Source: an uncultured Planctomycetaceae bacterium
GTDB lineage: Bacteria; Planctomycetota; Planctomycetia; Pirellulales; UBA1268
Length of the DNA stretch: 44,861 nucleotides
Reading direction: 5' to 3'
Assembly (NCBI GenBank): GCA_963923225.1
Contig: CAWUOA010000001.1
Span: 1 to 44,861, forward strand
The notes beneath the pieces are model-generated. The model had not been told where the DNA came from, ran no database searches, and saw only the letters and a program-made list of their open reading frames with translations. Shown here in pieces: positions 11,461 to 44,861 of the stretch (positions within the stretch are counted from its first letter, which is position 1; each line of letters begins with the position of its first letter). A program made the position numbers and the translations under genes.

Positions 11461-11651
11461 CGAAGCCTCCAGGAGGGGCGACTGCCCCGGTCATGTCGGT
11501 CAATCGTCGGTCGCCCCGCCGCGGGAGTCAATTCCTCACCCGCGACCGAGGGCCCCTCTCCTCCATCGGCGGGAATCCCGCCCCGGCGCCAATCGAGGGG
11601 GCGGAAATGGCCGAAAGGGCGGCTTTTCCGGTCCGCCGGGGACGGAAATGG

Positions 11652-15067: not shown

Positions 15068-15133
15068 GCCTCTTGTTCCCCGTCATCGACCACTGCCCGA
15101 GACCGACGCCGCGGATCGTGGCCCTCGGAGCCG

Positions 15134-16342: not shown

Positions 16343-16449
16343 TCGCTGCGGGATCGTTTCCCATCCATCCGTCGTCCGGCCGGGGGTGAGTCTAGCCCCG
16401 GGGACGCGAACGACGAGTTCGGCCGGTCGACCCCGGCCCGGAGCGAGCG

Positions 16450-17659: not shown

Positions 17660-17681
17660 CCCCGCCCCGGAGACACGCGCC

Positions 17682-18779: not shown

Positions 18780-18980
18780 GATCCGCCCTTCCCGCTCCGG
18801 CACGGCCCCATCTCCTGGGCGGTGCCGCCGCGGTGTGAAGCTGCGGAAGCTGCGGAATGTGCAGGCGTCGTCCCGACCGGATCGATTTTTCCCTCCGTGC
18901 CTGTCGATCTGACGACGAGGCGGGAACATTCGGCTCGTACGGCAGGGTCTTCCGGGGCCCTCCAGAGGCACGGGACGCGC

Positions 18981-21428: not shown

Positions 21429-21540
21429 GCGCTGTGACCCCCCCGGCCCACAGGACCGGGTCCGCCCCGGCGAGGGCCCCTCTCCAGAGGGACGTCCTCG
21501 GGTGGTGCATCGCCGTTTTTCGCTCGATTCCGCGGTTTCC

Positions 21541-21570
21541 TTGCGACCGCCAATTCGTAAGGTGTATCTT
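21541..21570 (+). promoter_or_regulatory. candidate promoter of the glycan operon (TTGCGA - 18 nt - TATCTT)
   Basis: TTGCGA at 21541-21546 and TATCTT at 21565-21570 lie in the most AT-rich intergenic stretch of the window, about 135 nt upstream of the NusG-paralog start. Confidence 0.25.
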
Positions 21571-21704
21571 GGACGATGGCCAAAGCCACTCCGACGGCGC
21601 CGCCCCGTTCGGCGCAACTCCAATCTTATCAGACACTTCCATACATCTCGGGGAGCAATCTCACTTGCCACCCACGGGAACGGAGTCCGCGCGGAGGCTT
21701 TCCG

Positions 21705-22265
21705 ATGCCGCTTCTTCCCCGCGAGCCGGACATCTACCCGGCGAACCTCCTCGAGCCCGCGGAGAACTCCCCGGAACCCGGCAGGAAATGGCTGGCTTTC
21801 TACACGCTCGCGCGGCGCGAGAAGGACTTGGCCCGGAGACTCGCAGCACTGCGAGTCCCGTTCTACGCGCCCCTGGTGAAGCGACGGGTCAAATCGCCGG
21901 GTGGGCGAACGAGGGAATCGTTCGTTCCGCTCTTTCCCGGATACGTCTTCGCCAGGGTCGACGACGATCAGCGCCGCCTGACGTTGGCCACCAATACGAT
22001 CGCCCGCTGGCTCCCCGTCGGCGACGAGACGGTCCTTCTGGACGACCTCCGCTCGATCAAGCGTCTCATCGACGCGGGTGTTCCGCTCACACCGGAGGCG
22101 CGGCTCGAAGCCGGGCATCGCGTCCGTGTGCGGAGCGGACCGTTCCTCGGCCTGGAGGGCACGGTCGTCGAGCGGCGCGGCCGGCAGCGGCTCCTGGTGA
22201 CGGTTCGGTTCCTCAACCAGGGGGTGTCGATCGAACTGGAGGACGTGGAACTCGAGCCACGATGA
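21705..22265 (+). CDS. specialised NusG paralog (RfaH/UpxY/LoaP-like operon-specific antiterminator)
   Basis: ATG 21705 with GGAGG at 21693-21697 (7-nt spacer). NGN-like domain (WLAFYTLARREKDLARRL...PLFPGYVFARV) and KOW motif (GHRVRVRSGPFLGLEGTVVE). It is the first gene of a 23-kb co-directional polysaccharide cluster. Confidence 0.85.
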   Translation: MPLLPREPDIYPANLLEPAENSPEPGRKWLAFYTLARREKDLARRLAALRVPFYAPLVKRRVKSPGGRTRESFVPLFPGYVFARVDDDQRRLTLATNTIARWLPVGDETVLLDDLRSIKRLIDAGVPLTPEARLEAGHRVRVRSGPFLGLEGTVVERRGRQRLLVTVRFLNQGVSIELEDVELEPR

Positions 22266-22338
22266 TCGTGTCCCCGGGCCGCGTCACGGCGCGGCGCGGC
22301 GATATCTCCGCCCCCGGCGGGGAGGCGGGTGCCACCCC

Positions 22339-24081
22339 ATGAAGACGATCGCGAAACTCTGGGCCATGCTCGAGCCCGCGGAGAAGGTCTCCGCCGCGGG
22401 GCTCCTCGTGTGGATGCTGATCAGCATGCTGCTGGAGATGGTCGGCCTCGGCCTGGTCATACCCGCCCTGACGCTGATGGCCGGCGGCAGCGATTCCGGG
22501 ATGCTTCGCCACCTGCCGCCGTCGCTGCAGTGGATCGGCGGCGTCGATCGCTCCACGTTGCTCTTCTGGGGGCTCGGCGCGCTGCTCCTGCTCTACCTGG
22601 TCAAGGCCGCGTTCGTCCTGTTCGCCGTCTGGAGACAGCTCAAGTTCATCGAGCGACTGCAGAATCGCGTCGCGGAGCGGTTGTTCACCGTCTATTTGGG
22701 TCAGCCCTGGACCTTCCATCTCCAGCGCAATTCCGCCTCCCTGATTCGCGTCATCAACGACGTCACGCCGATGGCGGGCACGGTCACGTTCCTCCTCGGG
22801 GCGCTTGCGGAATCACTCGCCGTGGTGGGCATCATGGCGACGCTCCTGTGGTTCGAACCGGTCGGCGCCCTGGTGGTGGGCGCGCTGGCGACGGCCGCCA
22901 CGTTCGTCCTCGACCGTGTCACGCGAAAGCGACTGGTCCGCTGGGGGGGCATCGCCCAGCAGCATCACACCCAGAGTTCCAAACACATGCTGCAGGGACT
23001 CAACGGCGTGAAGGACGTCATCGTCGCCGGTGTCGAGAAGGGGTTCATCGAGCCGTTCGTCGCCAACCGCTCGCGGTACGTCCAGATTCTCACCCGCCAG
23101 AACTTCATCGGGGCGATTCCGCGGATTTGGTACGAGATTCTCGCCATCGGATCGCTCTGCGTGCTCACCCTGGTGCTTCACGCGCAGGGCCTCGGCCCGC
23201 AGGAGATGATCCCCACGCTCGGGCTGTTCGCCGCGGCGTCCTTCAAGATGCTCCCCTCGGTCAATCGACTCGCCCAGGCGACCCAGGCGATGCGTTTCGG
23301 AAAGGCGCTGATCGACGAGATCCACTCCGAACTCCAACTCTCCGCCCGGCCGATTCCGGAGTGTTCATCCGCGGCGCCGATGCGGTTCGAGGACACGATC
23401 GCGGTCGAGTCCGTCACCAGTCGTTATCCCGGCGCCGATCGCAACGCCCTCGAGAACGTCTCGTTCACGATTCCGCAGGGCGCCTCGGTCGGAATCGTCG
23501 GGGGGAGCGGCGCTGGGAAGAGCACCCTCGTGGACGTCATCCTCGGCCTGATCGCGCCGCAGGAAGGACGCGTGACGGTGGACGGGGTCGACATCGCGAC
23601 CGACGTGCGGGGCTGGCAGAGACTCGTCGGTTACGTCCCCCAGTCGATCTACCTCTGCGACGATTCGCTGCGGCGGAACGTGGCCTTCGGAGTACCCGAG
23701 GATCGCTTCGACCAGGCGGCGTTCGACCGAGCGATCAAGGCGGCACGCCTCGACGATTTCATGGCGACCCTTCCCGAAGGCGAGCACACGATGGTCGGCG
23801 AGAGGGGCGTGCGGCTTTCCGGGGGGCAGCGGCAGCGGATCGGCATCGCGAGGGCCCTGTACCACGACCCCCCCGTGCTCGTTCTCGACGAGGCGACCAG
23901 CGCCCTCGACACCGACACCGAGCGGGACGTGATGCACGCGGTCAATGCCCTCCATGGCCAGAAGACGCTGATCATCATCGCCCACCGCCTGACCACGGTC
24001 GCCAACTGTGACAGGGTGTACCGATTCGAACACGGCCGATTGATCGCTGCCGGTACGTTTTCCGAGGTCTGCGCCGGATGA
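22339..24081 (+). CDS. fused TMD-NBD ABC exporter (MsbA/PglK-like half transporter)
   Basis: 580 aa. Six predicted N-terminal TM helices. Walker A GGSGAGKST, signature LSGGQRQR, Walker B VLVLDEATSALD, H-loop IIAHR. Confidence 0.92.
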   Translation: MKTIAKLWAMLEPAEKVSAAGLLVWMLISMLLEMVGLGLVIPALTLMAGGSDSGMLRHLPPSLQWIGGVDRSTLLFWGLGALLLLYLVKAAFVLFAVWRQLKFIERLQNRVAERLFTVYLGQPWTFHLQRNSASLIRVINDVTPMAGTVTFLLGALAESLAVVGIMATLLWFEPVGALVVGALATAATFVLDRVTRKRLVRWGGIAQQHHTQSSKHMLQGLNGVKDVIVAGVEKGFIEPFVANRSRYVQILTRQNFIGAIPRIWYEILAIGSLCVLTLVLHAQGLGPQEMIPTLGLFAAASFKMLPSVNRLAQATQAMRFGKALIDEIHSELQLSARPIPECSSAAPMRFEDTIAVESVTSRYPGADRNALENVSFTIPQGASVGIVGGSGAGKSTLVDVILGLIAPQEGRVTVDGVDIATDVRGWQRLVGYVPQSIYLCDDSLRRNVAFGVPEDRFDQAAFDRAIKAARLDDFMATLPEGEHTMVGERGVRLSGGQRQRIGIARALYHDPPVLVLDEATSALDTDTERDVMHAVNALHGQKTLIIIAHRLTTVANCDRVYRFEHGRLIAAGTFSEVCAG

Positions 24082-24147
24082 CCTCCACGTTCCTCGGCGA
24101 AGACGCCGGCGGGGGACGGCTCCTTCCTCCATGTCGTTTCGGCGTGC

Positions 24148-25731
24148 ATGCACCCGACGACAACCACTGCTGAGAATCCCATGTCGACAGCCAGCGTGTT
24201 CGCCCATCCGGGCGTCCCCTACCCCCCTGGGGTGGCCGTGGGCGAGATGACGTCGCCGACGCGGGCCCCCCTCAACGCCGCCCGCATCGCGAAGGACGCC
24301 GCCCTCACCCTGGCGCTCGTCCTTCTCAACCTCGGCGGCATTCCCGGCTCCTCGATCTTCTTCGCGATCCTGACGGTGATGGTGTTCTGGAAGCCTTCAG
24401 CCGCCTACAAGGCGGTCCTCATCAGCGCCCTGGGCCTGATCCTCAACGAAGCCTTCGTACCCAAGACGGTCGTCTGGACCGTGGCGCGACTCGTCCTGCC
24501 GATGCTCGCCTGTGCACGCTTTCTGATCGATCTTGCCGCCACGCGCGGCGGCGGGGCCGGTGGCATGAAAGGCACCTACGCGACGCTCATGGTGTACGTC
24601 TTCACCATGGCGGCCTGCAGTTTCGCGAGCGGATGGTACACCCACATCGCGCTGCTCAAGCTCTTCAACTTCTGGATTCTCATGACCATGGTGTTCGCCG
24701 GAACGGCCGTCTTGCGCCGCACCAAGGTCGATCTCAGCGAATGGGTGGTGTCACAGATCGTCGCGACCGCGGTCGTCGGCGTCGCCGCCGTGGCGACCGG
24801 CCAGAGCCGCAACTTCCTCGTCTACCGTCTGCGCGACACCGACATCGCGATTTCGGATTCGCTCTTCAACGGCGCGTTCCTGCACCCCAACGCCCACGCC
24901 GCCTACGCCTCGTTGTTCGTGATCTTTCTGGTGAGCATCTACCTTTTCTCGCACTACCGCCAGCGGTTGCTCACGCTCCCGCTGATCGCGACTTGGTTGA
25001 TCTTCATGGTCTATTCGCAATCGCGGACGTCGCTGTTCGCGACGGCGGTTCCCCTCCTCGTCGTCCTGCCTTTCGAAGCCAGGAAAGTGGTTCGTGACGG
25101 AAGGCTGTTCAAGCCCCACGTCTCTCGCGCCACGCTCGCGGCTGCGGCGATGGTGATGGCCTGCGGACTGCTGATCCTCGACGTCGCGGCGGATCGCGTG
25201 GTGACGAAGCAGGCGGTCATGTTCCTCCACAAATGGGACCAGACGGAGACCACCGAGCTCAGCACCGAGACGATGCTCAGTTCACGGCAGGGAAAAATCG
25301 ACGAATCGATGGCCAACTTTCGCGAGAACCCCTGGCACGGAATCGGTTTCGGCGTGGCGAAGAACGACTTTTTCGTACAGGGGGCGACGTTGTTCACGGC
25401 GCCGGCGGAGAAGGGATTCCTCATTTCCGCGGTGCTGGAGGAGGGGGGAATCTTCGGAGCGGCTGCGTTCGTCCTGTTCCTGCTGACGATGGTCGTGAGC
25501 TTGGTGCGGTCACACAACGTTCCGGCGCTGCTCACGCTGGCATGCATGATCGTTTCGAACTTCGGCGAGGTGACGCTGTTCGCCCCCGGCGGTTCCGGCA
25601 CCTTTCTTTGGATGATGTTCGGACTGGCGGTCATTCTCGGTGACCATTGCTGGCAGAAGCCGCTGCCGCCGCGGACCGCCTCCGCCCCCGGCGGAATGCG
25701 TGCGGCCATCGCCCCGAACATGGCGGCTTGA
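24148..25731 (+). CDS. polytopic O-antigen ligase / Wzy-family (Wzy_C-like) membrane protein
   Basis: 527 aa with at least 10 hydrophobic segments and a large loop region (SRQGKIDESMANFRENPWHGIGFGV), typical of WaaL/Wzy/PglL-type proteins. ATG 24181 is an alternative start. Confidence 0.7.
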   Translation: MHPTTTTAENPMSTASVFAHPGVPYPPGVAVGEMTSPTRAPLNAARIAKDAALTLALVLLNLGGIPGSSIFFAILTVMVFWKPSAAYKAVLISALGLILNEAFVPKTVVWTVARLVLPMLACARFLIDLAATRGGGAGGMKGTYATLMVYVFTMAACSFASGWYTHIALLKLFNFWILMTMVFAGTAVLRRTKVDLSEWVVSQIVATAVVGVAAVATGQSRNFLVYRLRDTDIAISDSLFNGAFLHPNAHAAYASLFVIFLVSIYLFSHYRQRLLTLPLIATWLIFMVYSQSRTSLFATAVPLLVVLPFEARKVVRDGRLFKPHVSRATLAAAAMVMACGLLILDVAADRVVTKQAVMFLHKWDQTETTELSTETMLSSRQGKIDESMANFRENPWHGIGFGVAKNDFFVQGATLFTAPAEKGFLISAVLEEGGIFGAAAFVLFLLTMVVSLVRSHNVPALLTLACMIVSNFGEVTLFAPGGSGTFLWMMFGLAVILGDHCWQKPLPPRTASAPGGMRAAIAPNMAA

Positions 25732-25759
25732 CGGCTGGCACGGGTTGCAAGTGCACACC

Positions 25760-26758
25760 ATGTCACACACGACGGAAGACGCCTCCCGCCATGGGGGAGG
25801 CCAGGGACACATCGCCGTTCTTGTCCTCTGCTTCAACGACTCGAAATGGCTCCATCGATGCCTGACGAGCCTCTTGGCGACGAAGGACGAGCACTTTTCC
25901 GTGTACGTCATCGACAATGCGTCGGTCGACGGGAGCGTGGATTTCGTCACGTCGAACTTCCCCCAGGTGCGGGTGGTGAGGAACTCGCGCAACCTCGGGT
26001 TCGCCGCCGGCAACAACGAGGGAATCCGCGTCGCCGTGGAAGACGGGGCCGATTTTCTCGTCCTCCTCAACACCGACACCTGGGTGGAGGAGAACTGGCT
26101 CACGGAACTACGGAAACCGTTCGCCGCGGACCCGTCGATCGGTGTCGTCACCGCGATGATCGAGAACTACGACAACGACCGCTTCGACAAGAATTTCTCG
26201 CAGATCCTGGCCGCCACGCCGGAGTTCATCCAGGACGCCTGGGATGGACGGGTCAAGCCCTGGTACCACACCGACACGGGATCCGGCGCGGCGCTGATGG
26301 CTCGACGGTCGTTCTACGAGGACGTCGGCGTCATCGATCCGGTGTTCTTCATGTACTTCGAGGAGATCGATCTGATCCGCAGGGGCCGCTACCTGGGGTA
26401 CAAGGCCGCGTTCAGCACGACGGGGGTGATCCACCACCACAACCACCTCGAAACGCCGACCGCTGGAAGGCCGACGAAGGCGCGTTTCGAACGTGGCTAC
26501 ATGATCTTCACCCTCAAGAACCAGTTCGAACCCCTCGCGAAGTGCATCATCAAGTTCCTGCTCGAAGTCGTGTCCAGACCGGTGGGTGCGATCCTCAAGG
26601 GACAATGGAAGCGCACGTTGACGCTGCTCGGCACCGGCGCCGAGCTCCTCGTCCGCAGCCCGGCGATCCTCTATCGAAGGCATCTGGAGATGCACTCGCC
26701 CTCCCGGTTGCCGGAAATGCGCTGGCTGCGGCCTGGAACGGGGCGGACCCGTGACTGA
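25760..26758 (+). CDS. family-2 glycosyltransferase
   Basis: ATG 25760. AVLVLCFND...VIDNASVDGS...NLGFAAGNNEG...DFLVLLNTD (DxD) is the GT-A GT2 signature. Confidence 0.88.
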   Translation: MSHTTEDASRHGGGQGHIAVLVLCFNDSKWLHRCLTSLLATKDEHFSVYVIDNASVDGSVDFVTSNFPQVRVVRNSRNLGFAAGNNEGIRVAVEDGADFLVLLNTDTWVEENWLTELRKPFAADPSIGVVTAMIENYDNDRFDKNFSQILAATPEFIQDAWDGRVKPWYHTDTGSGAALMARRSFYEDVGVIDPVFFMYFEEIDLIRRGRYLGYKAAFSTTGVIHHHNHLETPTAGRPTKARFERGYMIFTLKNQFEPLAKCIIKFLLEVVSRPVGAILKGQWKRTLTLLGTGAELLVRSPAILYRRHLEMHSPSRLPEMRWLRPGTGRTRD

Positions 26759-28076
26759 TCGGCCGCGCGTGCTCGTCCCGATCGCCGAACCCATCGGCGG
26801 TCAGATGTCGGCCGTGGGAATCCGGCAGTCCGAGATCGGCAAGGCATTGTCGCCGCACTGCGACGTGACTTTCGCCGCCCGGGAGGCGGCCAACGACGAA
26901 GTCCCCGGGGTGCGAATCGTGCCCTGCAGGAGCCGGCGCGACTTCCGCGCGCTCCTCGACTCCCACGACGTCCTCTACACGCTCGGTCTCAATTCGGATC
27001 GGTTCCTCGACGTCGTCCGGTCGGGAATCCGCATCGTGCTCGACCTCTACACGCCCCAGGCGTTCGAGGTGATGGAATGCTGGCCGGAGGTGCCCGACGC
27101 GATCATGGAGCGGCACCACCGGCGGCTCGTCCGCTGGACGCTCGCCCAACTGGCGGTGGCCGACTACGTCGTCTGTACCACCGAGCCTCAGCTCGACCTG
27201 TGGCTGGGGATGATGAACGGCGCCGGCCTGCTCGGCGTCGGCCAATCCCGACGCGATCCGGCCTGGCGCGACCGGCTGGGGGTCGTGCCGATGGGGGTTC
27301 CGCAAACGCCCCCCCGCGCCGACGGCCATCCGCTCCGCGCGCGGCTGCCGGGAGTCGGGGCCGACGATTTCCTCCTCCTCTGGAGCAGCAATCTCCTCCC
27401 TTGGCAGGATCCGGTGACGCTCGTCGAGGCGATGGACCTGGTGCGCCGGCAGGACCCGGCCGTGCGCCTGGTGTTCCTGGGGATCGGCCAGCCCCGCGGT
27501 CCGGGCGGGTCGCTGTTCGACAACATGACGCTCCGCGCGCGGCAGGCCCGTGAGGCCTCCGACGCCCGCGGCCTCACCGATTCGACGGTGTTCTTCATCA
27601 CCGATCGCGTCCCTTACCGTGACATGGGCCCCCACCTCCTCGACGCGAACGCCGCGGTGTCGACCTATCCGGATTCCCTGGAAACGCGATGCTGCCTGGG
27701 AACCCGGCTCACCGATTACCTGTGGGCCGGACTTCCGATGGTGGTCAGCGGAGCCCGCATCCAGCATGATTTCATCGAGGGACAGGGACTGGGAAGGTGC
27801 GTACGGCCGGGCGACCCCGACGCCCTCGCCCGTGCGATCCTCGGAACCAAACGGGACGTGGAACAGGGGGCCATCGACCCCGCTGCCTTCGATCGGGCCC
27901 GCGAGCGGTTCGGCTGGTCCGCCGTGACGGAACCCTTGGTCCGGTGGCTGGCTGCACGAGTCCGACGTGGGGACCGGGCCCGGCGCGACGTCGTGGGGGC
28001 AGCGGGTTCACTCGCCGAGTTCTGGTTCCGCAGCCTCGACTTCCGGCTGGCTTCGCGATGGCACGGCGTCCGGTAA
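26751..28076 (+). CDS. GT-B fold (GT1/GT4-like) glycosyltransferase
   Basis: GTG 26751 overlaps the upstream stop by 8 nt. The C-terminal half has the GT1 pattern (FLLLWSSNLLPWQDP..., ETRCCLGTRLTDYLWAGLPMVV EX7E-like). Confidence 0.72.
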   Translation: MTDRPRVLVPIAEPIGGQMSAVGIRQSEIGKALSPHCDVTFAAREAANDEVPGVRIVPCRSRRDFRALLDSHDVLYTLGLNSDRFLDVVRSGIRIVLDLYTPQAFEVMECWPEVPDAIMERHHRRLVRWTLAQLAVADYVVCTTEPQLDLWLGMMNGAGLLGVGQSRRDPAWRDRLGVVPMGVPQTPPRADGHPLRARLPGVGADDFLLLWSSNLLPWQDPVTLVEAMDLVRRQDPAVRLVFLGIGQPRGPGGSLFDNMTLRARQAREASDARGLTDSTVFFITDRVPYRDMGPHLLDANAAVSTYPDSLETRCCLGTRLTDYLWAGLPMVVSGARIQHDFIEGQGLGRCVRPGDPDALARAILGTKRDVEQGAIDPAAFDRARERFGWSAVTEPLVRWLAARVRRGDRARRDVVGAAGSLAEFWFRSLDFRLASRWHGVR

Positions 28077-28125
28077 CCGTTCACACGACACACGACGTTT
28101 TTTGCACTTCCAGGAAAGACTACCA

Positions 28126-29127: not shown

Positions 29128-29159
29128 GCCGTCAACTCCCAGCAAGGCCGCGTTTCGCC

Positions 29160-37708: not shown

Positions 37709-37739
37709 CCGCCCCCGAGAGACGGAGACCGAATCGTTC

Positions 37740-38960: not shown

Positions 38961-38967
38961 ACCCACA

Positions 38968-39990
38968 ATGGCAGTCCGCATCCACTTCGCGGGTCTGGTG
39001 CCGGGACAACCGCTCGTGCACGTCGCCTGGGCGGCATTCGCCGGGGACGAGCGACTGTCGTCGTCGACCGTCATGCACTTCGGCCGCGAACTGGCGGACG
39101 TGTTCGATCGTCACTGGTCCGTGGCCCCGACCGTCGCCGACTGCGACGTCGTCGTCTATCCCCACAGCTACGTCGACGGAGCCGAGACGGCGGCCGTCGC
39201 CGAGACGGCGCGGAGGGCCGGCAAACCATGCCTGTTCTTCAGCCAGGACGAGCGCATTCCCCCGTCGTCGTTGAGCTACGGGGCCTTGTACCGCAGTTCC
39301 ATCTTCGAGCGACGCCCCAACGAACGCTGCCATCCCGTCTTCATCCTCGACGCCATTGAGGAGACTCACGGCACGTTTCCGGAGACGCTTCCCAAGGAGA
39401 GCGCACCCCGGATCGGATTCTGCGGCTACGTGGGAACGCCGCTGGGAAGGCTCGCCTTGCGAATGCTCGGCGCGAAACAGAAGGTGGACGGACTCTTTCT
39501 GAGAGCCCGCGTCCTGTCCGCCCTGCGCGAAGACCCCCGCCTTCGCTGTGAGTTCGTCGCCCGGGCCAGCTATCTCGGCCGTGCGCCGTTGTCGGCGTTC
39601 GACAAGTCGCATCCGCTCACGGCGGAGCGGGACGTTTTCCTCCACAATCTCTTCACCTGTCCCTACGCGCTGGCGATGCGAGGGAAGGGCAACCACTCGG
39701 TCCGCTTCTACGAGATCCTCTCGGCGGGGCGGATTCCGCTGTTCTTCAACACGCGATGCGTGCTGCCGCTCGAGAACGAGATCGACTGGCGCGATCTGGT
39801 CGCCTGGGTCGAGGAGAGCGAACTGCCGGTGATCGGGGACCGTATCCTCCGCTTCCATGAGTCTCTCGATCCCGAGGCCTTCGAGGAGCGACAGCGAAGG
39901 ATCCGGCAGGTGTGGCAGACCCGGCTGATGCCGGAACCGTTCTTCGTGCACGTCCTCGACACCGTCGCCAGAGGCGAACCGGCCCCCTGA
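38968..39990 (+). CDS. exostosin-like (GT47-type) glycosyltransferase
   Basis: 340 aa. The C-terminal region FCGYVG..., YALAMRGKGNHSVRFYEILSAGRIPLFFNT...PLENEIDWRDLVAWVEE resembles the exostosin-family signature. Confidence 0.6.
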   Translation: MAVRIHFAGLVPGQPLVHVAWAAFAGDERLSSSTVMHFGRELADVFDRHWSVAPTVADCDVVVYPHSYVDGAETAAVAETARRAGKPCLFFSQDERIPPSSLSYGALYRSSIFERRPNERCHPVFILDAIEETHGTFPETLPKESAPRIGFCGYVGTPLGRLALRMLGAKQKVDGLFLRARVLSALREDPRLRCEFVARASYLGRAPLSAFDKSHPLTAERDVFLHNLFTCPYALAMRGKGNHSVRFYEILSAGRIPLFFNTRCVLPLENEIDWRDLVAWVEESELPVIGDRILRFHESLDPEAFEERQRRIRQVWQTRLMPEPFFVHVLDTVARGEPAP

Positions 39991-40005
39991 CCCAGGCGTT
40001 CATCG

Positions 40006-41160
40006 ATGACCAGAGCACGTATCGCCGTCTTCGTCGGCACCCGGCCCGAAGCCATCAAAATGGCGCCGGTCATCAAGGCGCTGGAGAAGGCCGAGGGCCT
40101 CGAACCGGTCGTCGTTTCCACCGGCCAACACCGGGAGATGCTCCGTCAGGTGGTGGATCTGTTCGAACTTCCGATCCACCACACGCTCGACGTGATGCAG
40201 CCCGACCAGACGCTCGCGGGTCTCTCGTCGCGTCTGCTCGCCGCCATCGACGGGTCGCTCGAGGCGATCCGCCCCGAGATGGCCTTGGTCCAGGGAGACA
40301 CGACGACGGTCCTCATGGCGGCGCTGGCGTGCTATTACCGCCGCATCCCGATCGGCCACGTCGAAGCGGGGCTGCGTACCGGCGACATCCATTCGCCGTT
40401 CCCCGAGGAAGCGAACCGGAAGTTGGCGTCGCCCCTGGTCACGCTGCACTTCGCCCCGACCCAGGGGGCCGCTGACAATCTCCTCCGCGAGGGGATCCCC
40501 CCCTCCACGATCCACGTCACCGGCAACACGGTGATCGACGCGCTGTTCATGGAAGTCGAGCGACAGAGGCGACCGGAGGTCCGGGACGCGATTTCCGGCC
40601 GTCTCGACGCGCTCCTCGGATCGGATCGGCGGGATCGGCCGTACGTGCTCGTCACCGGCCACCGTCGCGAGAACTTCGGCGGCGGCTTCGACGAGATCTG
40701 CGACGCGCTCGCCCTCTTGGCGGACCGATTCGCCGACCACGACTTCATCTATCCGGTCCACCTCAACCCGAACGTCCAGAAGCCGGTCTACCAGCGTCTC
40801 GCCGGTCGGCCGAACATCCGGCTCGTCGCTCCGCAGGCCTACGCCGAGTTCGTGGCGCTGATGCACGCCAGCCGCCTGATCCTCACCGATTCGGGGGGCG
40901 TGCAGGAGGAGGCTCCGAGCCTGGGCAAGCCCGTACTCGTCATGCGGGACACCACCGAACGGCCGGAGGCGGTCGCGGCGGGCACCGTGGAGTTGGTCGG
41001 CGCCCGTGCGGACAGGATCGTCGAGCGGGTCACGGCGCTCCTCGGCGACGCCGATCTCTACAAGCGGATGAGCGAGGCGATCAATCCGTACGGCGACGGC
41101 CACGCGGCGGGGCGAATCGTCGCGGCCGTGCGTCGTGCCGTCATCGGAGCCGGAACATGA
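40006..41160 (+). CDS. wecB: non-hydrolysing UDP-N-acetylglucosamine 2-epimerase
   Basis: IAVFVGTRPEAIKMAPV..., TGQHREML, VQGDTTT, HVEAGLRT, TDSGGVQEEAPSLGKPVLVMRDTTERPE are near-canonical WecB/MnaA motifs. Confidence 0.92.
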   Translation: MTRARIAVFVGTRPEAIKMAPVIKALEKAEGLEPVVVSTGQHREMLRQVVDLFELPIHHTLDVMQPDQTLAGLSSRLLAAIDGSLEAIRPEMALVQGDTTTVLMAALACYYRRIPIGHVEAGLRTGDIHSPFPEEANRKLASPLVTLHFAPTQGAADNLLREGIPPSTIHVTGNTVIDALFMEVERQRRPEVRDAISGRLDALLGSDRRDRPYVLVTGHRRENFGGGFDEICDALALLADRFADHDFIYPVHLNPNVQKPVYQRLAGRPNIRLVAPQAYAEFVALMHASRLILTDSGGVQEEAPSLGKPVLVMRDTTERPEAVAAGTVELVGARADRIVERVTALLGDADLYKRMSEAINPYGDGHAAGRIVAAVRRAVIGAGT

Positions 41161-42320
41161 CGACGAAGCGGGTCATGGTCGCGGGATGCTTCGACTTGCT
41201 GCACGCCAGCCACGTCGTCTTCCTGAAGAAGGCCGCCACGCTCGGCGATCTGTACGTGTCGCTCGGCGCCGACCAGTCCATCGTGCGCCAGAAGAACAAG
41301 TCCCCGACCTACAACCAAGAGGAGCGGAAGTACCTCCTCGAGAACTTGCGCTGCGTGACGTGGGTGGGAATCGTCACCGATCCCGGACCGACCGGCTTCG
41401 AGGAGCACATCGCGGAAATCCGACCGGACATCTTCGTGATCAACGAGGACGGCGACACTCCCGAGAAGCGCGCCGTCTGCCAGCGATTCGGCGTCGAGTA
41501 CCGCGTCTTTCCCCGGGACCACTTCGATCCCTCGGCCCCGACCTCGACGACGCAGATTTCGCAGGGCGATTTTCTCCCCACGCGCGTCAGTCTGTGCAGT
41601 GGATTCATGGACAATCCCGCATTCAACGGGAGCACCTCGGGGGGCGTCGGCAGTCTGGTGGTGTTGCCGATCGAGCCCATCCCGGGGATGCACGCCCGTT
41701 CCGGGATGGCCACGAGCACGATCAAGACCGTCCGCAAGTATTTCGGCTGCAGATTGCCCACGATCTACGACGTCGACCGCCTCGCCGAGATCATCTTCTG
41801 CCTGGAGAATCCGCCCCACAAGCGGGGCTACATCTCCGGAACGCTCGATGCCCGCGGCATCCTCGGGCACGGCGCGAGCATGTTCACCTACAGGGCGACC
41901 AAGTACTTTCCCCACGAGATCGAGACGCTCCGCGACGAACCCACCCTCTCCTGGCTGGAGCGACACCTCTATCTCAAGCATTCCTTCGACCGCCCCGAAG
42001 ACTGCATCGTCAGCGTGAGACACGACCATCCGGAGTTCCAGCATCATTGCGACACGATGCAGGAAGCGAGCCTGCAGTGCTGGGCCGCCATCCGGGAGCG
42101 GGATCTCGACTCGCTCTCCGACGCGATCACCAGATCCCATCTTTCGCAAAGCGCCGTCGTCCAGAACCATTGCCCTCCACGCCTCCGCGAGTTCATCGCA
42201 CAGGAGCGTCGGAGAGGGGCGAACGTCATGGGAGCGGGCGGTGGGGGATACGTGGTCTTCGCGGCCGAGGAGATACCCGCCGACGCCATACCCATCCGCA
42301 TCAAACGTGCCGACTTCTGA
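41157..42320 (+). CDS. fusion protein: N-terminal cytidylyltransferase-like nucleotidyltransferase + C-terminal GHMP-kinase-like domain
   Basis: ATGA overlap with wecB. N-terminal domain: VMVAGCFDLLHASH (HxGH-type motif reads HASH at 41202-41213) and TSTTQI (ISTT-like). C-terminal domain: RSGMATST (degenerate GHMP motif II) and GAGGGGY (motif III, 42230-42250). Confidence 0.8.
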   Translation: MTTKRVMVAGCFDLLHASHVVFLKKAATLGDLYVSLGADQSIVRQKNKSPTYNQEERKYLLENLRCVTWVGIVTDPGPTGFEEHIAEIRPDIFVINEDGDTPEKRAVCQRFGVEYRVFPRDHFDPSAPTSTTQISQGDFLPTRVSLCSGFMDNPAFNGSTSGGVGSLVVLPIEPIPGMHARSGMATSTIKTVRKYFGCRLPTIYDVDRLAEIIFCLENPPHKRGYISGTLDARGILGHGASMFTYRATKYFPHEIETLRDEPTLSWLERHLYLKHSFDRPEDCIVSVRHDHPEFQHHCDTMQEASLQCWAAIRERDLDSLSDAITRSHLSQSAVVQNHCPPRLREFIAQERRRGANVMGAGGGGYVVFAAEEIPADAIPIRIKRADF

Positions 42321-42508
42321 CCTTTCCGGATCCGCGGTCATGGATCCTCGTCATGCCCCGGCACGGTCGGCATCCTCCCGACCGGCCGTACGATCGGACC
42401 GGATTCCAGACGCCACCAATCGACTCTGTCGCCGCGACGACGGCAGGTGGACATCCCGGCGAGAGGACCGACCGTCGTAGCCGCGTCATTCGCCCCCCAT
42501 CACCATCC

Positions 42509-43708
42509 ATGACCATCCGCGTAAACTCCGTCATCTGTGGAATATTCCACTACCGCAAGTACATCGGCGACTACAGTCGCAGCGGGCAACTCCAGGCCTT
42601 CTATTACTCCCACCGTCGCTCCACCACCGCCGAGACGCTGGGCATCGTGTCGGGCAAGGCGATCAACTTGTGGCTCAAGGAGTACCTGCTGGCCTCCGCG
42701 TACAGACTGCCGGCCCAGTGGCGGGCTCACGATCGGATCGGGCCGACGGTCCACCGATGGTGGGAGCGACAGGTCTTGCGACGCTGGATCCCCTGTGACC
42801 TGCTCCACCTCCACCTCCTCGGCACCGCGAATCGGGTTCTCGACCGCGCCCGCTCGGAAGGCGCCGTGACGATGGGCGAACCCGTGATGTGCCATCCGGT
42901 CACGCTGGACCGAATCCTCGCCGAGGAGCACGATCTTCTCGGCATCCCCCGGCAGCGCCTCGATCTTCTTTTCGCGTCACTGGTGGAGGAGATCCCGAAG
43001 TGTGACTATCTCGTGGCCGGATCACGGGCCGTGAGGGATTCCTACGTCGCGAGGGGATATCCCTCCGATCGCATCAGGGCGATTTCTTACGGGGTCGACG
43101 CGACACGTTTCACGCCACTTTCCGAGGCGGAGAAGGCCGCCTGTGCCGACGGCAAGTTTCGGGTGATCTGCGTCGCTCAGATCACCCCGCGGAAGGGCAT
43201 TCACTACCTGCTCGAGGCGTGGGCGCGACTCGGCCTGCCCGCGAACGAATCCGAGCTCCTCCTCGTCGGCCCGGTCGCGGAGTCACTGGAGCCGGTGATG
43301 CGCCGATACGCCGGTAGTTACACCCACCTGCCGCACGTGCCCCACGAACGACTGAGGTTCTACTACGGCAAGTCCAGCGTCTTCGTCTTGCCCAGTGTCG
43401 AGGATGGATTCGGCCTCGTCACGGCGGAGGCGATGGCCTGCGGGCTTCCCGTGGTGGTCAGCGACGCCGCCGGCAGCGCCGATCTCGTCGAGCACGGCGT
43501 CAGCGGCTTCGTCGTGCCTTCCCGGTCCGCGGAGGCGATCATGGAAGCCCTCGACACCCTCTATCGTGACCCCGAACGCCGTGTCGCCATGGGCCGACGG
43601 AGCCTCGCCCTCTGCGGGGCGCACGATTGGTCAGCCTTCGCATCGCAACTCGCCGCCTACCATCGCGATGCGGTGGAAAGTCGCACCGGAGGGGTCGCCG
43701 CCCGATGA
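42509..43708 (+). CDS. GT1/GT4-family glycosyltransferase
   Basis: ATG 42509; the track shows it only as the tail of the run-on ORF 41135-43708. FRVICVAQITPRKGIHYLL..., VLPSVEDGFGLVTAEAMACGLPVVVSD (EX7E). Confidence 0.85.
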   Translation: MTIRVNSVICGIFHYRKYIGDYSRSGQLQAFYYSHRRSTTAETLGIVSGKAINLWLKEYLLASAYRLPAQWRAHDRIGPTVHRWWERQVLRRWIPCDLLHLHLLGTANRVLDRARSEGAVTMGEPVMCHPVTLDRILAEEHDLLGIPRQRLDLLFASLVEEIPKCDYLVAGSRAVRDSYVARGYPSDRIRAISYGVDATRFTPLSEAEKAACADGKFRVICVAQITPRKGIHYLLEAWARLGLPANESELLLVGPVAESLEPVMRRYAGSYTHLPHVPHERLRFYYGKSSVFVLPSVEDGFGLVTAEAMACGLPVVVSDAAGSADLVEHGVSGFVVPSRSAEAIMEALDTLYRDPERRVAMGRRSLALCGAHDWSAFASQLAAYHRDAVESRTGGVAAR

Positions 43709-44861
43709 CGTCTCCCCCCGGTGACACCCGGCCCCGTCCGCGGCGGCGACGCTTCTTTCCGAAGTCCGTCGCACGGGTGCTTCGCTACCTGAGCATCTAC
43801 GGGTTGCGGAGGACGCTCTACAAGATCGCCGGACGGCGGCGCGGATCGTTGCGCTGGCTGCGGCCGCGCCCCGCACGCAGGCGTGACATCGCCGTTCTCG
43901 GCTGCGGACAGTACGCGTTCGCGACGATCGGCTGCATCGTCGCGCGGCATGCCGGCAATCGCTTCGTCGACTGTTACGACCCCGATGGAGAGGCGCAGGC
44001 GACGTTCGCCGATTTCTACGGGCTCCCCGAGCCGTCGGGGTCGGCAGCGGCCGTCATCGCGAACCCTTCCGTACAGCTGCTCTACGTGGCATCGAACCAT
44101 GCCTCGCATACCGATTACGCCATCGAGGCCCTCGCCCTCGGGAAGGACGTCTACTGCGAGAAACCCATCAGCGTGTCGATGGACCAGGCGCGCCGGCTCT
44201 TCCGGGCGGTTCGGGAAGCCCGAAGCCGATTCGACGTCGGATACAATCGCCCCTTCTCCCGAGCCGTGAGGGACCTGCGCGACGCCAGCCGCCACGTCGG
44301 CGGGCCCGTCACCCTCGGGTGCTTCGTCGTCGGCCATTTCCTGCCCGACGACCACTGGTACCGGCGGCCCGGGGAAGGCACGCGGATCTGCGGGAACGTC
44401 GGTCACTGGATCGACTTGGCGGTGCACGTGCTGCGGTGGTCTTCGCGCCCGGACGAGTTCCACATCACGCTCGCCTGGTCCGACGACCGCGCCCGCGACG
44501 ACAATCTCTCCATCACGCTGACCACGCCGCGGGGCGACTTGGTGACGATCGTCCTGACGGCGCGAGCGGAGCCATTCGAGGGCATTCGCGAGTCGATTCA
44601 CTTCCAGCAAGGGGAAGTCCTCGCCGAGATCGACGACTTCAGGGCGATGGTCATCCGCGACGGGGATGGGCTGGTGCGTCGTCGCTACTGGCCCAAGGAC
44701 GTCGGCCACGTCGCCGCGATCACCCAGCCGTTCCGGCCTCCGTCCCGGGATTGGACGGAAGTCGAACTGTCGACGCTCCTCATGCTGCGTATCGCGGCGA
44801 TGGTCCGTGGCGGGGAGCGCGAGTCGAAGTTCATCTCCGGTCACGCCATCGAGAGCGTGTA
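43705..44861 (+). CDS. Gfo/Idh/MocA-family oxidoreductase, 3'-truncated by the window edge
   Basis: ATG 43705 overlaps the upstream stop (ATGA). Frame 1 is open for 385 codons to the window end, and I translated it by hand without finding a stop. IAVLGCGQYAF (Rossmann) and DVYCEKPIS (EKP motif). It is not in the ORF track; the listed antisense ORF 43657-44844 is its shadow. Confidence 0.75.
   Translation, partial: MTSPPGDTRPRPRRRRFFPKSVARVLRYLSIYGLRRTLYKIAGRRRGSLRWLRPRPARRRDIAVLGCGQYAFATIGCIVARHAGNRFVDCYDPDGEAQATFADFYGLPEPSGSAAAVIANPSVQLLYVASNHASHTDYAIEALALGKDVYCEKPISVSMDQARRLFRAVREARSRFDVGYNRPFSRAVRDLRDASRHVGGPVTLGCFVVGHFLPDDHWYRRPGEGTRICGNVGHWIDLAVHVLRWSSRPDEFHITLAWSDDRARDDNLSITLTTPRGDLVTIVLTARAEPFEGIRESIHFQQGEVLAEIDDFRAMVIRDGDGLVRRRYWPKDVGHVAAITQPFRPPSRDWTEVELSTLLMLRIAAMVRGGERESKFISGHAIESV

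Follow-up and report, generated by a model that had tools for sequence, protein, structure and literature searches.

A planctomycete operon led by a NusG paralog that may assemble a surface glycan by an uncommon, Wzk-type route

How might a bacterium build and export a surface glycan from a locus in which none of the familiar priming and export genes can be recognised? This question is raised by a gene island in the second half of a 44,861-nt stretch of DNA (the window) from an uncultured planctomycete. The initial annotation had described eighteen co-directional genes, headed by a NusG paralog and reaching the window edge, and a GC3 frame plot, a start-codon listing and Pfam/NCBIfam scans bear this out: They place 18 plus-strand genes (g1 to g18) between 21576/21705 and 44861 and reveal no convincing minus-strand gene within the array. 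All eight of the start/stop overlaps listed there are present, namely five ATGA overlaps at 30149, 32591, 34744, 41157, and 43705, an 8-nt overlap at 26751, the GTG start of g5 (with ATG 26805 as the alternative start), and 11-nt overlaps at 31359 and 36437; the remaining intergenic gaps measure 7–96 nt. Terminator-like sites inside the array show no excess over shuffled sequence (6 found, 6.8 expected), and promoter-like sites amount to 0 where 1.2 are expected. Extension past the window edge via three contigs of 99.7–99.9% identity (L001, L052, L053) completes g18 as a 397-aa protein and adds a 19th gene, g19, which encodes a 324-aa methyltransferase and again follows with an ATGA overlap. 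After g19 the direction of transcription reverses, and a convergent rmlC-rmlA-rmlB set is followed by the housekeeping genes for fumarase and P-II. With 18 + 1 co-directional genes, 9 junctions coupled by overlap, no gap longer than 96 nt and no terminator excess, the island is likely one long operon of 19 genes and about 24 kb, from which we infer a single transcript, as had been proposed. Its architecture appears typical of O-antigen loci: Between related loci, the head of NusG paralog, ABC transporter and ligase-like gene as well as a precursor cassette (g10–g14, 65–89% identical) are conserved, the intervening transferases vary, and the GC content falls below that of the upstream half of the window (67.4% vs 72.8%).

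The statement that no priming or classical export genes are in view holds as well. PF00953 and PF02397 are absent from all called genes, and when E. coli WecA, WcaJ, WzxE/RfbX/WzxC, Wza, Wzc, and WzzE served as tblastn queries against the window and L001 in all six frames, no match was better than E about 0.6. Neither WecA/WbaP nor Wzx, Wza/Wzc or Wzm/Wzt was found in the 44.9-kb window or the ~6 kb downstream. The initial annotation had allowed that a WecA/WbaP gene plus Wzx or Wza/Wzc might follow the array and make it an ordinary cluster; the operon end, g19, the rmlC/rmlA/rmlB genes, fumarase and P-II lie there instead, and the near-identical contigs contain no priming transferase in this extension. 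In related planctomycetes (L049–L051), an orthologous NusG paralog (66–69% identical) heads a separate operon with the order NusG paralog, PglF-like, DegT, Glycos_transf_4, Bac_transf … Wzx and a divergent Poly_export gene. By its domains, this operon is predicted to encode WecA-type and PglC-type priming transferases and Wzx, with Wza adjoining divergently. Because the relatives carry these functions in a separate NusG-led operon, the missing priming enzyme is, by this comparison, an ordinary feature of the locus.

The genes between head and end can be read as a glycan assembly line. Seven glycosyltransferases score above the Pfam threshold: the GT2 proteins g4 (25760..26758; PF00535, 83 bits; no TM segments) and g7 (29160..30152; PF00535, 55 bits), the weakly matching GT4-type (GT-B) protein g5 (26751..28076; PF13692, 31.6 bits vs 27 cutoff), and the GT4 proteins g8 (30149..31369; PF00534, 115 bits), g9 (31359..32594; PF00534, 62 bits; 49–56% identical in related loci), g12 (36437..37708; PF00534, 78 bits; WcaI/WbuB-like by NF007640, 166 bits vs 276 cutoff; 78% identical in L009), and g17 (42353..43708; PF00534, 110 bits). 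The length of g17 differs by gene caller (451 aa in L001, 399 aa in L052), and starting it at 42509 instead would open a gap of 188 nt behind g16. Of the eight transferases originally counted, the eighth, g14 (38968..39990; 71% identical in L009), is a possible GT47-like protein that stays below threshold (PF03016, 26.8 vs 33.4 cutoff). Pfam and NCBIfam models confirm the annotated wecB and wecC, the SDR epimerase and the fused ABC exporter: g15 (40006..41160) is WecB, the non-hydrolysing UDP-GlcNAc 2-epimerase (TIGR00236, about 464 bits vs 210 cutoff), g13 (37740..38960) is WecC, the UDP-ManNAc dehydrogenase (NF008286, 531 bits vs 459 cutoff), each 53% identical to its E. coli counterpart, and g6 (28126..29127) is a GalE-like SDR NDP-sugar epimerase/dehydratase (PF01370, 189 bits; GalE TIGR01179, 164 vs 262 cutoff). 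The three oxidoreductase modules reside in g10 (32591..34747), a fusion of Zn-ADH and Gfo/Idh/MocA domains (PF00107, PF01408, PF22725), and in the second Gfo/Idh/MocA protein g18 (43705..44861, cut by the window end; PF01408, 64 bits). Gene g10 opens the highly conserved cassette and shows 80–89% identity to its counterparts in L002, L004, and L009, loci in which g2 and g3 reach only ~50%. The annotated lyase-fold protein corresponds to the heparinase II/III-like g11 (34744..36447; PF07940, 174 bits, and PF16889; weak PDB matches to heparinase III; 65% identical in L009), which possibly acts on a uronic acid by C5 epimerisation or elimination. The kinase-nucleotidyltransferase fusion is g16 (41157..42320), in which an N-terminal cytidylyltransferase-like domain (PF01467, 39.6 bits; HldE domain II model, 65 bits; PDB matches to cytidylyltransferases only) precedes a GHMP-kinase-like domain (PF08544, GHMP_C, 23.1 bits) and which would activate some sugar or polyol.

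WecB and WecC at equivalog level recall the ManNAcA supply of the enterobacterial common antigen and of S. aureus Cap5-8, but in contrast to the common antigen the locus lacks WecG (GT26), WzxE/WzyE/WzzE and WecA; ManNAcA is presumably transferred by one of the GT4 proteins. Membrane proteins are limited to g2 and g3, and since neither the transferases nor g11 carry a signal peptide or TM segment, assembly should be cytoplasmic and the glycan flipped whole.

Gene g2 (22339..24081) encodes a half-transporter in which the ABC_membrane (PF00664) and ABC_tran domains are fused. It aligns over its full length to the NCBIfam model of PglK (280 bits vs 1000 cutoff), whereas the MsbA model TIGR02203 (290 bits vs 602 cutoff) spans residues 110–577 only; as both scores lie under their cutoffs, the substrate is not firmly assigned by them. 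Among PDB entries, the best homodimeric match of the whole protein is PglK (264 bits, MsbA 209), and a search with the transmembrane domain (TMD) returned PglK with 50.8 bits (E 1.4e-12, colinear over 4–314/2–313), MsbA with 26.4 bits, and no further match. Moreover, the functional basic residues R86/R260/R302/R309 of PglK (PMC5395944) align to K89/R262/K303/R310 of g2, and the four positions remain K or R in orthologues of 49–75% identity. We thus predict from sequence affinity that g2 is a PglK/Wzk-like flippase for a lipid-linked glycan. Like Wzm/Wzt and KpsMT, it would drive export of a cytoplasm-completed glycan by ATP, but those systems combine a separate ABC-2 permease with an ATPase, whereas g2 is a fused half-transporter of the type-IV-exporter fold, and KpsE/D or Wza partners are missing here.

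The label of a Wzy_C-type membrane protein, given initially to g3 (24148..25731; possible start ATG 24178), fits the family better than the protein. With its ~10 hydrophobic segments and a large loop, g3 itself has no Pfam or NCBIfam match even at E<=1, Pfam Wzy_C included, but 26/35 of its family members match PF04932, and for its AF2 model (pLDDT 81) WaaL (7tpg, E 3e-5) is the sole significant PDB fold match; on these two grounds we assign it to a divergent Wzy_C (O-antigen-ligase-like) clade. The structural match to 7tpg is globally weak (TM 0.37/0.44, rmsd 12 Å), and the g3 family profile did not find WaaL in the PDB by sequence. In a by-eye alignment the family carries an invariant E-K (APAEKGF) where E. 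coli WaaL has the essential H337-N. The lack of LPS-core genes in the window counts against a ligase role. In L006/L011, L012, and L013, three independent MAG lineages, homologues of g3 stand directly after genes for a GT9 heptosyltransferase, GmhA and HldE, and rmlC/rmlA flank them convergently as they do in the island. From fold and family, g3 is predicted to be the transferase of the flipped glycan.

The PglK-like TMD of g2, its Wzy_C/WaaL-like neighbour and the heptose/LPS-core context of the homologues together match the O-antigen pathway of H. pylori, which employs an unlinked WecA, cytoplasmic transferases, the PglK homologue Wzk, and WaaL (PMC2841628). On balance, we favour the reading that the island follows this known but uncommon Wzk-type route and not Wzx/Wzy, Wzm/Wzt or a synthase; the earlier conclusion that the pathway fits no known scheme gives way to a Wzk/PglK-type ABC flippase acting with a WaaL-like transferase. 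The operon probably makes a ManNAcA-containing LPS O-antigen or outer core. In the mechanism that we infer, with every activity and the acceptor deduced from gene content, affinities and synteny, a surface oligo- or polysaccharide would be assembled on the cytoplasmic side of the membrane, with polyprenyl diphosphate as its carrier: A priming phosphoglycosyltransferase whose gene lies elsewhere would start the chain, and the seven or eight soluble GT2/GT4-type transferases would extend it, using UDP-ManNAcA provided by WecB/WecC, sugars tailored by the SDR, the GFO enzymes and the oxidoreductase/heparinase-like cassette, and probably a dTDP-6-deoxyhexose supplied by the adjacent rmlCAB genes. 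The finished lipid-linked glycan would then be flipped by g2 and moved by the WaaL-like g3 to a periplasmic acceptor, most likely lipid A-core. Predicted cytoplasmic completion, a homodimeric TMD-NBD flippase with the four cavity basic residues kept, WaaL-family transfer, and a priming transferase unlinked to the locus are thus shared with H. pylori WecA-Wzk-WaaL and C. jejuni PglK. However, flippase, ligase-like protein and transferases are united in one coupled operon here, whereas they are scattered in H. pylori; the phylum is a different one, and g3 belongs to a divergent Wzy_C clade with an apparent E-K in place of the H-N of WaaL.

Other readings of the two membrane proteins have to be weighed against this one. 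We consider it unlikely that g2 is an MsbA-type lipid A-core flippase and that the Wzx of the separate NusG-led priming locus flips the glycan, with or without a Wzy, with g3 still as ligase. MsbA adjoining WaaL would be functionally sensible, TIGR02203 gives nominally the top NCBIfam score, and a Wzx-like gene does occur in the priming operon of related genomes, but the substrate-determining TMD, the full-length alignment and the retained cavity residues all favour PglK, and a fall of g2 orthologues to ~50% identity in step with a variable locus is unusual for an essential housekeeping MsbA. The Wzy_C superfamily also includes polymerases and protein O-oligosaccharyltransferases. General protein O-glycosylation, in which g3 would be a PglL/PilO-type enzyme acting on envelope or S-layer-like proteins, would accord with this membership, with the missing canonical His of WaaL in the by-eye alignment, with the window's lack of core-LPS genes, and with the function of PglK itself in protein glycosylation. 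H. pylori is described as employing Wzk/WaaL for both LPS and proteins (PMC9553153). We nevertheless hold this reading, too, to be improbable, as WaaL is the only significant fold match of g3, its homologues sit inside heptose/GT9 core-LPS gene sets of three lineages, and acceptor protein genes are not found nearby.

A capsule or exopolysaccharide such as holdfast material, made by a Wzy-like polymerase g3 and exported by machinery encoded elsewhere, is very unlikely in view of the LPS-core context of the g3 homologues and the absence of Wzx, Wzz/Wzc, and Wza from the locus and its flanks. Moreover, we know of no precedent for a PglK-type ABC half-transporter paired with a Wzy polymerase. What such a reading can draw on is the presence of polymerases among Wzy_C proteins and of Wza genes in the lineage, and a partial ORF in L043 that is Wzy_C-like by eye and follows a Wzc-like kinase. 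Least plausible appears an assembly scheme outside all known ones that dispenses with the usual lipid-linked priming step: The divergence of the g3 clade, the unassigned chemistry of g11 and g16, and the absence of priming and classical export genes from the window and ~6 kb beyond would be compatible with it, but for each step the Wzk/PglK plus WaaL route offers a recognisable counterpart, relatives encode priming transferases in a sister operon, and E. coli and H. pylori both have WecA unlinked as a rule.

Returning to the Wzk-type operon, its head gene g1 (21705..22265) encodes a specialised NusG paralog with NGN and KOW domains (PF02357, 36 bits vs 22 cutoff). The likeliest start is ATG 21705, which follows a GGAGG Shine-Dalgarno sequence at a distance of 7 nt and yields 186 aa, a length that more than 100 homologues share together with an MP(L/I)LP N-terminus; with this start, 21429–21704 is leader and not coding sequence. 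The family comprises 888 matches, the best 120 of which are 63–99% identical. In contrast to UpxY, RfaH, and LoaP themselves, g1 scores under all three NCBIfam cutoffs (UpxY NF033644, 75 vs 100; RfaH, 46 vs 144; LoaP likewise) and far under that of housekeeping NusG (32 vs 136).

Within the leader, a conserved block at 21541..21570 (plus strand) is promoter-like in the window (TTGCGA-N18-TATCTT). In alignment A2, L004/L005 share the conserved block CCTTGCGACCGCC...GGTGTATCTT and L016 shares part of it, and a consensus promoter scan did not call the block (8/12 matches); because a similar CTGCGACCGG block upstream in L049–L051 has a different spacing, its assignment as a promoter is tentative. 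Further downstream lies a ~26-nt element, GCCACCCACGGGAACGGAGTCCGCGC (21667..21692, plus strand), which was newly noticed in the present analysis and ends 12 nt before the g1 start codon. It is invariant in alignment A2 while its flanks diverge, and also across loci whose proteins are 62–71% identical; in the window it is unique, with 0 matches expected. Its 21-nt core is present in 12 metagenome contigs, and the fetched loci hold 21 distinct instances with <=3 mismatches, in which positions outside the query are conserved as well (-1 G in 19/20, +22 C in 18/20). The element has no Rfam match, no significant RNA fold (z = -1.1) and no covariation among its variants.

The element is a candidate ops-like recruitment site: On loading onto RNA polymerase there, g1 would suppress termination and polarity over the full length of the long transcript, in the manner of RfaH at ops and of UpxY at its ops sites. 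Like RfaH/ops (JUMPStart, Enterobacteria) and UpxY/opsX (Bacteroides capsule), the island combines a NusG paralog and long envelope-polysaccharide operons with a short conserved element on the sense strand of the transcribed leader; a paralog gene in first position is shared with UpxY, one element common to several operons with RfaH. Unlike in the UpxY system, no UpxZ-like inhibitor is encoded in second position, and the candidate G-Y-CACCCA-C-GGGAACGGAGT-C-CGCGC shows no sequence relationship to ops and has about double its length. Furthermore, the C-terminal domain of g1 is a beta-barrel in the AF2 model (pLDDT 83) and not the helical hairpin of RfaH, so that the prediction gives no sign of the autoinhibition that makes recruitment of RfaH depend on its ops site, which counts against the ops-like proposal. 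A role of the element as a repressor or activator site would be equally possible.

The distribution of the element suggests an RfaH/ops-like regulon, as it stands in front of NusG paralogs and also of further polysaccharide operons. Since some of these operons have no NusG gene, g1 probably acts in trans, and the paralog that the initial annotation had called dedicated to the island looks regulon-wide, its ortholog heading a separate operon in relatives. Such operons without a NusG gene carry a polysaccharide deacetylase and a sugar C-methyltransferase (L037/L041), a GT4 protein and a Wzc-like kinase (L043), or, in L046, a PglD-like acetyltransferase together with a polytopic membrane protein of 523 aa that has no Pfam match and that we take, by its sequence, for a Wzx-type flippase. 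In L009, a 3-mismatch variant is followed by an acetyltransferase, a methyltransferase and a g2-type ABC gene, again with no NusG gene, and L049–L051 each hold a second, internal copy of the element.

The co-directional gene array that the initial annotation had described from 21.5 kb to the end of the window is real and was described accurately. Because the high GC content of the window (about 72%) inflates the number of spurious open reading frames, of which 154 reach at least 100 aa, genes were called from third-position GC and start-codon context: By this measure, the coding frame of the array is always on the plus strand and 18 genes result. All eight overlaps of start and stop codons were recovered, namely ATGA at 30149, 32591, 34744, 41157, and 43705, 8 nt at 26751, and 11 nt at 31359 and 36437, and the other junctions measure 7-96 nt. 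Terminator-like and promoter-like sites within the array show no excess over the shuffled expectation. The genes do run up to the window edge, but the array continues beyond it: In three contigs found by exact-protein look-ups (L001, L052, and L053, 99.7-99.9% identical to the window), the truncated gene g18 has its full length of 397 aa and is joined by a further ATGA overlap to a nineteenth gene, which encodes a 324-aa methyltransferase. This is followed by convergent rmlC, rmlA, and rmlB-like genes and then by fumarase and P-II genes. The GC content of the island lies 5 points below that of its flank. Within the array, the start of g17 is ambiguous (42320-42509): ATG 42353 adds a Pro/Arg-rich N-terminus of 52 aa, and the alternative ATG 42509, chosen by another gene caller, leaves a gap of 188 nt, which would be wider than any other in the operon and might serve as an internal regulatory region.

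With regard to gene content, Pfam and NCBIfam models support two GT2 and five GT4-type glycosyltransferases; the eighth transferase that had been counted, which is GT47-like, is matched below threshold only. WecB, WecC, a GalE-like SDR, a fusion of Zn-ADH and GFO domains, a second GFO protein, a heparinase II/III-like protein, a fusion of cytidylyltransferase-like and GHMP domains, a fused ABC exporter, and a NusG-family protein are present as proposed. The supply of UDP-ManNAcA is assigned at equivalog level for both enzymes (WecB, TIGR00236, 464 vs 210; WecC, NF008286, 531 vs 459). The fusion protein g16 (41157-42320) is unusual in domain order and pairing: An N-terminal nucleotidyltransferase of the cytidylyltransferase fold, resembling HldE domain II, precedes a C-terminal GHMP-kinase-like domain. 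For comparison, HldE combines a PfkB kinase with a nucleotidyltransferase and Fkp an NTP_transferase with a GHMP domain.

The head of the operon, composed of the NusG paralog g1 (21705-22265), the ABC protein g2 (22339-24081), and the ligase-like membrane protein g3 (24148-25731), recurs in further loci (L004/L005/L045, L016, and L042). The genes g10-g14 (32591-39990), which encode the oxidoreductase fusion, the cytoplasmic heparinase-like g11, a WcaI-like GT4, WecC, and the GT47-like protein, are 65-89% identical in loci L002, L004, and L009, although identity falls to about 50% for g2 and g3 of these loci; this sequence conservation points to either strong constraint or recent cassette exchange. 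A literature search for the oxidoreductase/heparinase-like/GT4 cassette yielded nothing useful. The transferase genes between the head and g10-g14 differ from locus to locus, and an arrangement of this kind, in which conserved ends enclose a changing set of glycosyltransferase genes, is typical of O-antigen-type loci.

The reported absence of priming and export genes was borne out: When E. coli WecA, WcaJ, Wza, Wzc, WzzE, and three Wzx proteins were used as tblastn queries against every frame of the window and of L001, nothing was returned, and WecB and WecC were found to be 53% identical to the E. coli enzymes. A priming transferase with Wzx or Wza/Wzc directly downstream of the array is likewise missing, the place being taken by the methyltransferase, rml, fumarase, and P-II genes. 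The Wzx/Wzy route lacks a Pfam Polysacc_synt or Wzz match among the called genes as well as any tblastn match in the window and L001, and the gene table of L052 contains none of its genes downstream. For a Wzm/Wzt or KpsMT route there is no separate ABC-2 permease with its ATPase, the sole ABC component being the fused exporter-type g2, and for a synthase route there is no membrane-embedded processive GT2, both GT2 proteins being about 330 aa long without convincing transmembrane segments. These three schemes were thus correctly excluded before, but the conclusion that the pathway lies outside the known schemes is not supported, as it overlooked a fourth route, in which a PglK/Wzk-type ABC protein acts together with WaaL as in H. 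pylori. Only g2 and g3 are membrane proteins, and the transferases and g11 carry no signal peptides, which argues for cytoplasmic assembly, flipping of the whole glycan, and transfer outside. Specifically, the glycan would be built in the cytoplasm on a lipid carrier, the finished lipid-linked glycan would be flipped whole across the membrane by the PglK/Wzk-type ABC route, and a WaaL-like transferase would transfer it on the outer side. For the O-antigen of H. pylori, experiments have shown a pathway that starts with WecA, encoded away from the other genes, and proceeds through transferases of the cytoplasm and Wzk, a PglK homologue, to WaaL (PMC2841628); the scheme of cytoplasmic assembly, ABC flipping, and WaaL-type transfer would be the same here.

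A missing priming transferase at the locus is ordinary. In E. coli, wecA is located in the ECA cluster, and in other Planctomycetia a g1 orthologue (66-69% identical) heads a different operon that does contain priming enzymes (L049-L051, approximately 10001-20500 in each). Its order is NusG paralog, PglF-like dehydratase, DegT aminotransferase, a WecA-type (Glycos_transf_4) priming transferase and, adjacent to it, one of the PglC type (Bac_transf), then an 88-aa ACP-like ORF, an AMP-ligase, an SDR, a PglD-like acetyltransferase, and a Wzx-like protein; the operon is adjoined by a Poly_export (Wza) gene in divergent orientation.

The proposed flippase g2 is a single polypeptide of 580 aa with about six hydrophobic segments, in which an N-terminal exporter domain (PF00664) is followed by a C-terminal nucleotide-binding domain (NBD; PF00005), that is, the half-transporter architecture of the PglK/Wzk type. 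Among homodimeric exporters in the PDB, the full-length protein is best matched by PglK (264 bits, residues 4-568 vs 2-560), with MsbA at 209 bits. Because the transmembrane half determines the substrate, the search was repeated with this half alone, and phmmer gave three matches, of which two are to PglK (50.8 bits, E 1.4e-12, with colinearity from the N-terminus onward) and one is to MsbA (26.4 bits). The functionally relevant cavity arginines of PglK, R86, R260, R302, and R309 (PMC5395944), align to K89, R262, K303, and R310 of g2, two of them thus being conservative lysines, and in g2 orthologues (49-75% identical) the four positions are K/R, R, K/R, and R. With 280.5 bits, g2 stays below the cutoff of 1000 of the NCBIfam PglK equivalog NF050066, a model tuned to Campylobacter orthologues, and it also stays below the curated cutoff of the MsbA equivalog model. 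Consequently, g2 is classed as a PglK-like predicted flippase and not as a PglK orthologue. In the related locus L002/L008 a PadR gene stands in place of NusG, and the product of the ABC gene is a MacB_PCD/ABC_tran protein of 453 aa that shares 82% identity with the g2 NBD in its C-terminus. The contig of this locus, CAZMOU010000007.1, is labelled 'uncultured Chitinophaga sp.', yet its GC content is 69% and its locus is of planctomycete type (g10 87% and g3 52% identical), so that it is probably mis-binned.

The second membrane protein, g3, contains roughly ten hydrophobic segments as well as a large loop. It had been labelled Wzy_C-type, a label that rests on its relatives and not on a match of the protein itself: g3 has no match to Pfam Wzy_C (PF04932) at E<=1 and none in NCBIfam, but 26 of 35 rescanned relatives match PF04932 (best E 2e-9). 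In the protein collection it has 126 relatives, Planctomycetota MAGs among them, many with a precomputed Wzy_C match. A search of PDB sequences with the family profile reached nothing, with no WaaL even at E<=10. The link to WaaL comes from the fold: In a search with the AlphaFold (AF2) model of g3 (pLDDT 81, pTM 0.84), which is polytopic with a large periplasmic loop like WaaL, the sole PDB match with E<0.001 was WaaL 7tpg_B (E 3.3e-5, prob 1.0), although the global superposition is modest (TM 0.37/0.44); neither the sequence profile nor hhalign gave this link. In the non-significant hhalign alignment (prob 0.4%), the invariant R283 (SQSRTS) of g3 falls on R215 (TQTRAT) of E. coli WaaL. Where E. 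coli WaaL has H337 (H-N...G..G), the g3 family has an invariant A-P-x-E-K-G-F...E-x-G-G..G at the boundary of loop and transmembrane segment. Because this provisional alignment was made by eye, we treat E-K in place of H-N as a lead and not as a result; elsewhere, g3 contains an invariant H236. AP-x-EKGFL, the defining motif of the g3 clade, is shared by Wzy_C-like genes from MAGs of Gammaproteobacteria and Lentisphaerae (26-36% identical in the C-terminal half; alignment A1, L018-L033), so that the apparent His-less variant is not confined to planctomycetes.

Genomic context says more about g3 than its sequence does. Three independent MAG lineages (L006/L011, L012, and L013) have g3 homologues (44-45% identical) directly 3' of genes for a GT9 heptosyltransferase, GmhA, and HldE, which together constitute an ADP-heptose/LPS-core set. 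The association with LPS-core genes that marks WaaL is therefore seen for g3 homologues; the window itself contains no such genes. The L006/L011 lineage additionally shares the convergent rmlC/rmlA flank downstream with the window locus, and L014 has this flank too.

Weighing these observations, we give a slightly better than even chance to a Wzk/PglK-type ABC route that would lead to an LPS O-antigen or outer core with ManNAcA, under the control of the NusG paralog as an antiterminator. It is unlikely that g2 is MsbA: MsbA does appear in both exporter searches, each time behind PglK, and the cavity positions of PglK are basic in g2 and its orthologues. With WaaL as the sole significant fold match of g3 and LPS-core genes as neighbours of its homologues, attachment of the glycan to proteins appears improbable to a similar degree. 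Still less probable is that g3 acts as a polymerase for capsule or EPS, since its homologues lie in LPS-core surroundings and Wzx, Wzz/Wzc, and Wza genes are absent from the locus.

The start of the presumed regulator g1 was placed at ATG 21705, which gives a protein of 186 aa with a GGAGG Shine-Dalgarno sequence and the conserved MP(L/I)LP N-terminus, so that 21429-21704 is leader; a version of 229 aa from ATG 21576 was ruled out by homologue length, N-terminal conservation, and the position of the Shine-Dalgarno sequence. PF02357 is matched with 36 vs 22 and KOW with 18 vs 22, and the AF2 model shows an NGN domain, a linker helix, and a beta-barrel KOW domain (4-5 strands, residues 138-185). 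With both domains in place, g1 is nevertheless distinct from housekeeping NusG (32 vs 136 with the equivalog model) and falls below the cutoff of every named subfamily (UpxY 75 vs 100, RfaH 46 vs 144, LoaP 31 vs 125). By these scores it is assigned to a separate clade of specialised NusG paralogs whose nearest neighbour is UpxY. The family counts 888 matches, and the best 120 of the 888 are at least 63% identical (alignment A3). An alpha-helical autoinhibitory C-terminal domain of the RfaH type is absent from the AF2 model, which predicts beta strands, a kind of prediction that is unable to exclude fold switching. The gene is the first of the 19-gene operon, and its orthologues are first in the operons of L004, L016, L042, L045, and L049-L051. 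Two surveys of NusG paralogs (PMC7819879; PMC7593976) do not mention planctomycetes.

Alignment of the leaders of NusG-led loci revealed an invariant block at 21667-21692, ending 12 nt 5' of the start codon, and the other leader parts diverge with indels. Its 21-nt core is single in the window, with 0 matches expected, and was found in 12 metagenome contigs, in five of which a g1 orthologue follows the core. Across 21 distinct instances the consensus of about 26 nt reads G-Y-CACCCA-C-GGGAACGGAGT-C-CGCGC, and the positions beyond the searched 21-mer are also conserved. The element is not restricted to NusG-led operons: With no NusG gene at the head, it precedes a polysaccharide deacetylase/DUF3473, a sugar C-methyltransferase, and an RmlC-like protein in L037/L041, a GT4 and a Wzz/Wzc-type kinase in L043, and, in L044/L046, a PglD-like acetyltransferase with a polytopic membrane protein of 523 aa; the latter has no Pfam match and is taken from its sequence for a putative Wzx-type flippase. 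L009 likewise lacks a NusG gene here, and the element, in a variant form, precedes an acetyltransferase, a methyltransferase, and a g2-type ABC gene. L049-L051 carry two copies each, one 5' of NusG and one in an internal intergenic gap 5' of the acetyltransferase gene. No second, degenerate copy with <=5 mismatches was found in the window or downstream of the operon, and the ambiguous region 42320-42509 holds none.

The simplest reading of this distribution is a sequence-specific site in the transcribed leader that would act across a regulon and is a candidate recruitment site. Such a site would be a counterpart of ops in the RfaH system, or of the extended ops sites in Bacteroides capsule leaders, which are read by UpxY (PMC11685472; PMC7819879). 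Recognition as DNA or by a protein was preferred to a structured RNA: The fold z is -1.1, and the variants show no covariation for the sole possible hairpin. An Rfam search of the leader and the whole window gave nothing at the leader. GGAAC in the element was rejected as an ECF-sigma -35, since neither the spacer downstream of it nor a -10 is conserved and the start codon follows at distances between about 12 and 65 nt. A sigma-70 promoter scan made no call, and because a conserved TTGCGA...TATCTT block is promoter-like in the window only and differently spaced in L049-L051, this promoter is left tentative. L040 (50% GC) does not fit the ops-like reading: It has two copies of the element on the minus strand at 5046 and 5374, about 330 nt apart, with three tandem repeats of about 33 nt (ATTGTAGAACAGTTGTCCCCAACTGTTGATCCT) after one of them, and no polysaccharide genes were recognised near the copies.

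As a glycan gene cluster the island is ordinary. Three things are new: a leader element that several polysaccharide operons have in common, an apparent change from His to Glu/Lys in the ligase-like clade, and the proposed occurrence in Planctomycetota of the Wzk-type route; to our knowledge, this route has so far been known only from Epsilonproteobacteria. It is now accepted that planctomycetes are diderm and possess LPS. The assembly or regulation of their O-antigen or other surface glycans is undescribed, and neither O-antigen nor NusG appears in a 2025 review of the phylum. The locus offers a concrete testable model in which a Wzk/PglK-type ABC route is joined to a divergent ligase. Combining all of its parts, we tentatively picture an RfaH-like regulon of the Planctomycetia's own, a reading that we hold to be possible and rather doubtful in its entirety: The conserved 186-aa NusG paralog would be recruited by the previously undescribed element of about 26 nt, which would mark priming/Wzx, flippase/ligase, and other envelope-polysaccharide operons; a PglK/Wzk-type ABC route ending in a WaaL-like clade without the canonical catalytic His (E-K for H-N) would yield the O-antigen of the phylum; and the cytoplasmic heparinase-like/oxidoreductase cassette would perform uronic-acid chemistry. 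The antiterminator and leader element could be a master switch for planctomycete envelope polysaccharides. Being short and invariant, the element lends itself to mutation, and g2 is amenable to cross-complementation.

The upstream half of the window contains planctomycete signature genes (PSD/PSCyt modules, DUF1552) beside the housekeeping genes carA, tmk, and holB and a prolyl oligopeptidase gene. Two ORFs with strong coding signal lie at or near the island, one of 868 aa adjoining it (18822-21428, plus strand; no Pfam or NCBIfam match) and one of 452 aa (15006-16364, minus strand; no Pfam match), together with an FkbM-type methyltransferase gene (14210-15067, minus strand); none of the three is kept beside the NusG-led locus in relatives. 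Further upstream, a c-di-AMP riboswitch (3488-3662, plus strand; Rfam RF00379, 50.2 bits vs a gathering score of 38, E 8e-9) is positioned directly 5' of a gene for a 762-aa SPFH/Band-7-domain protein (3749-6037).
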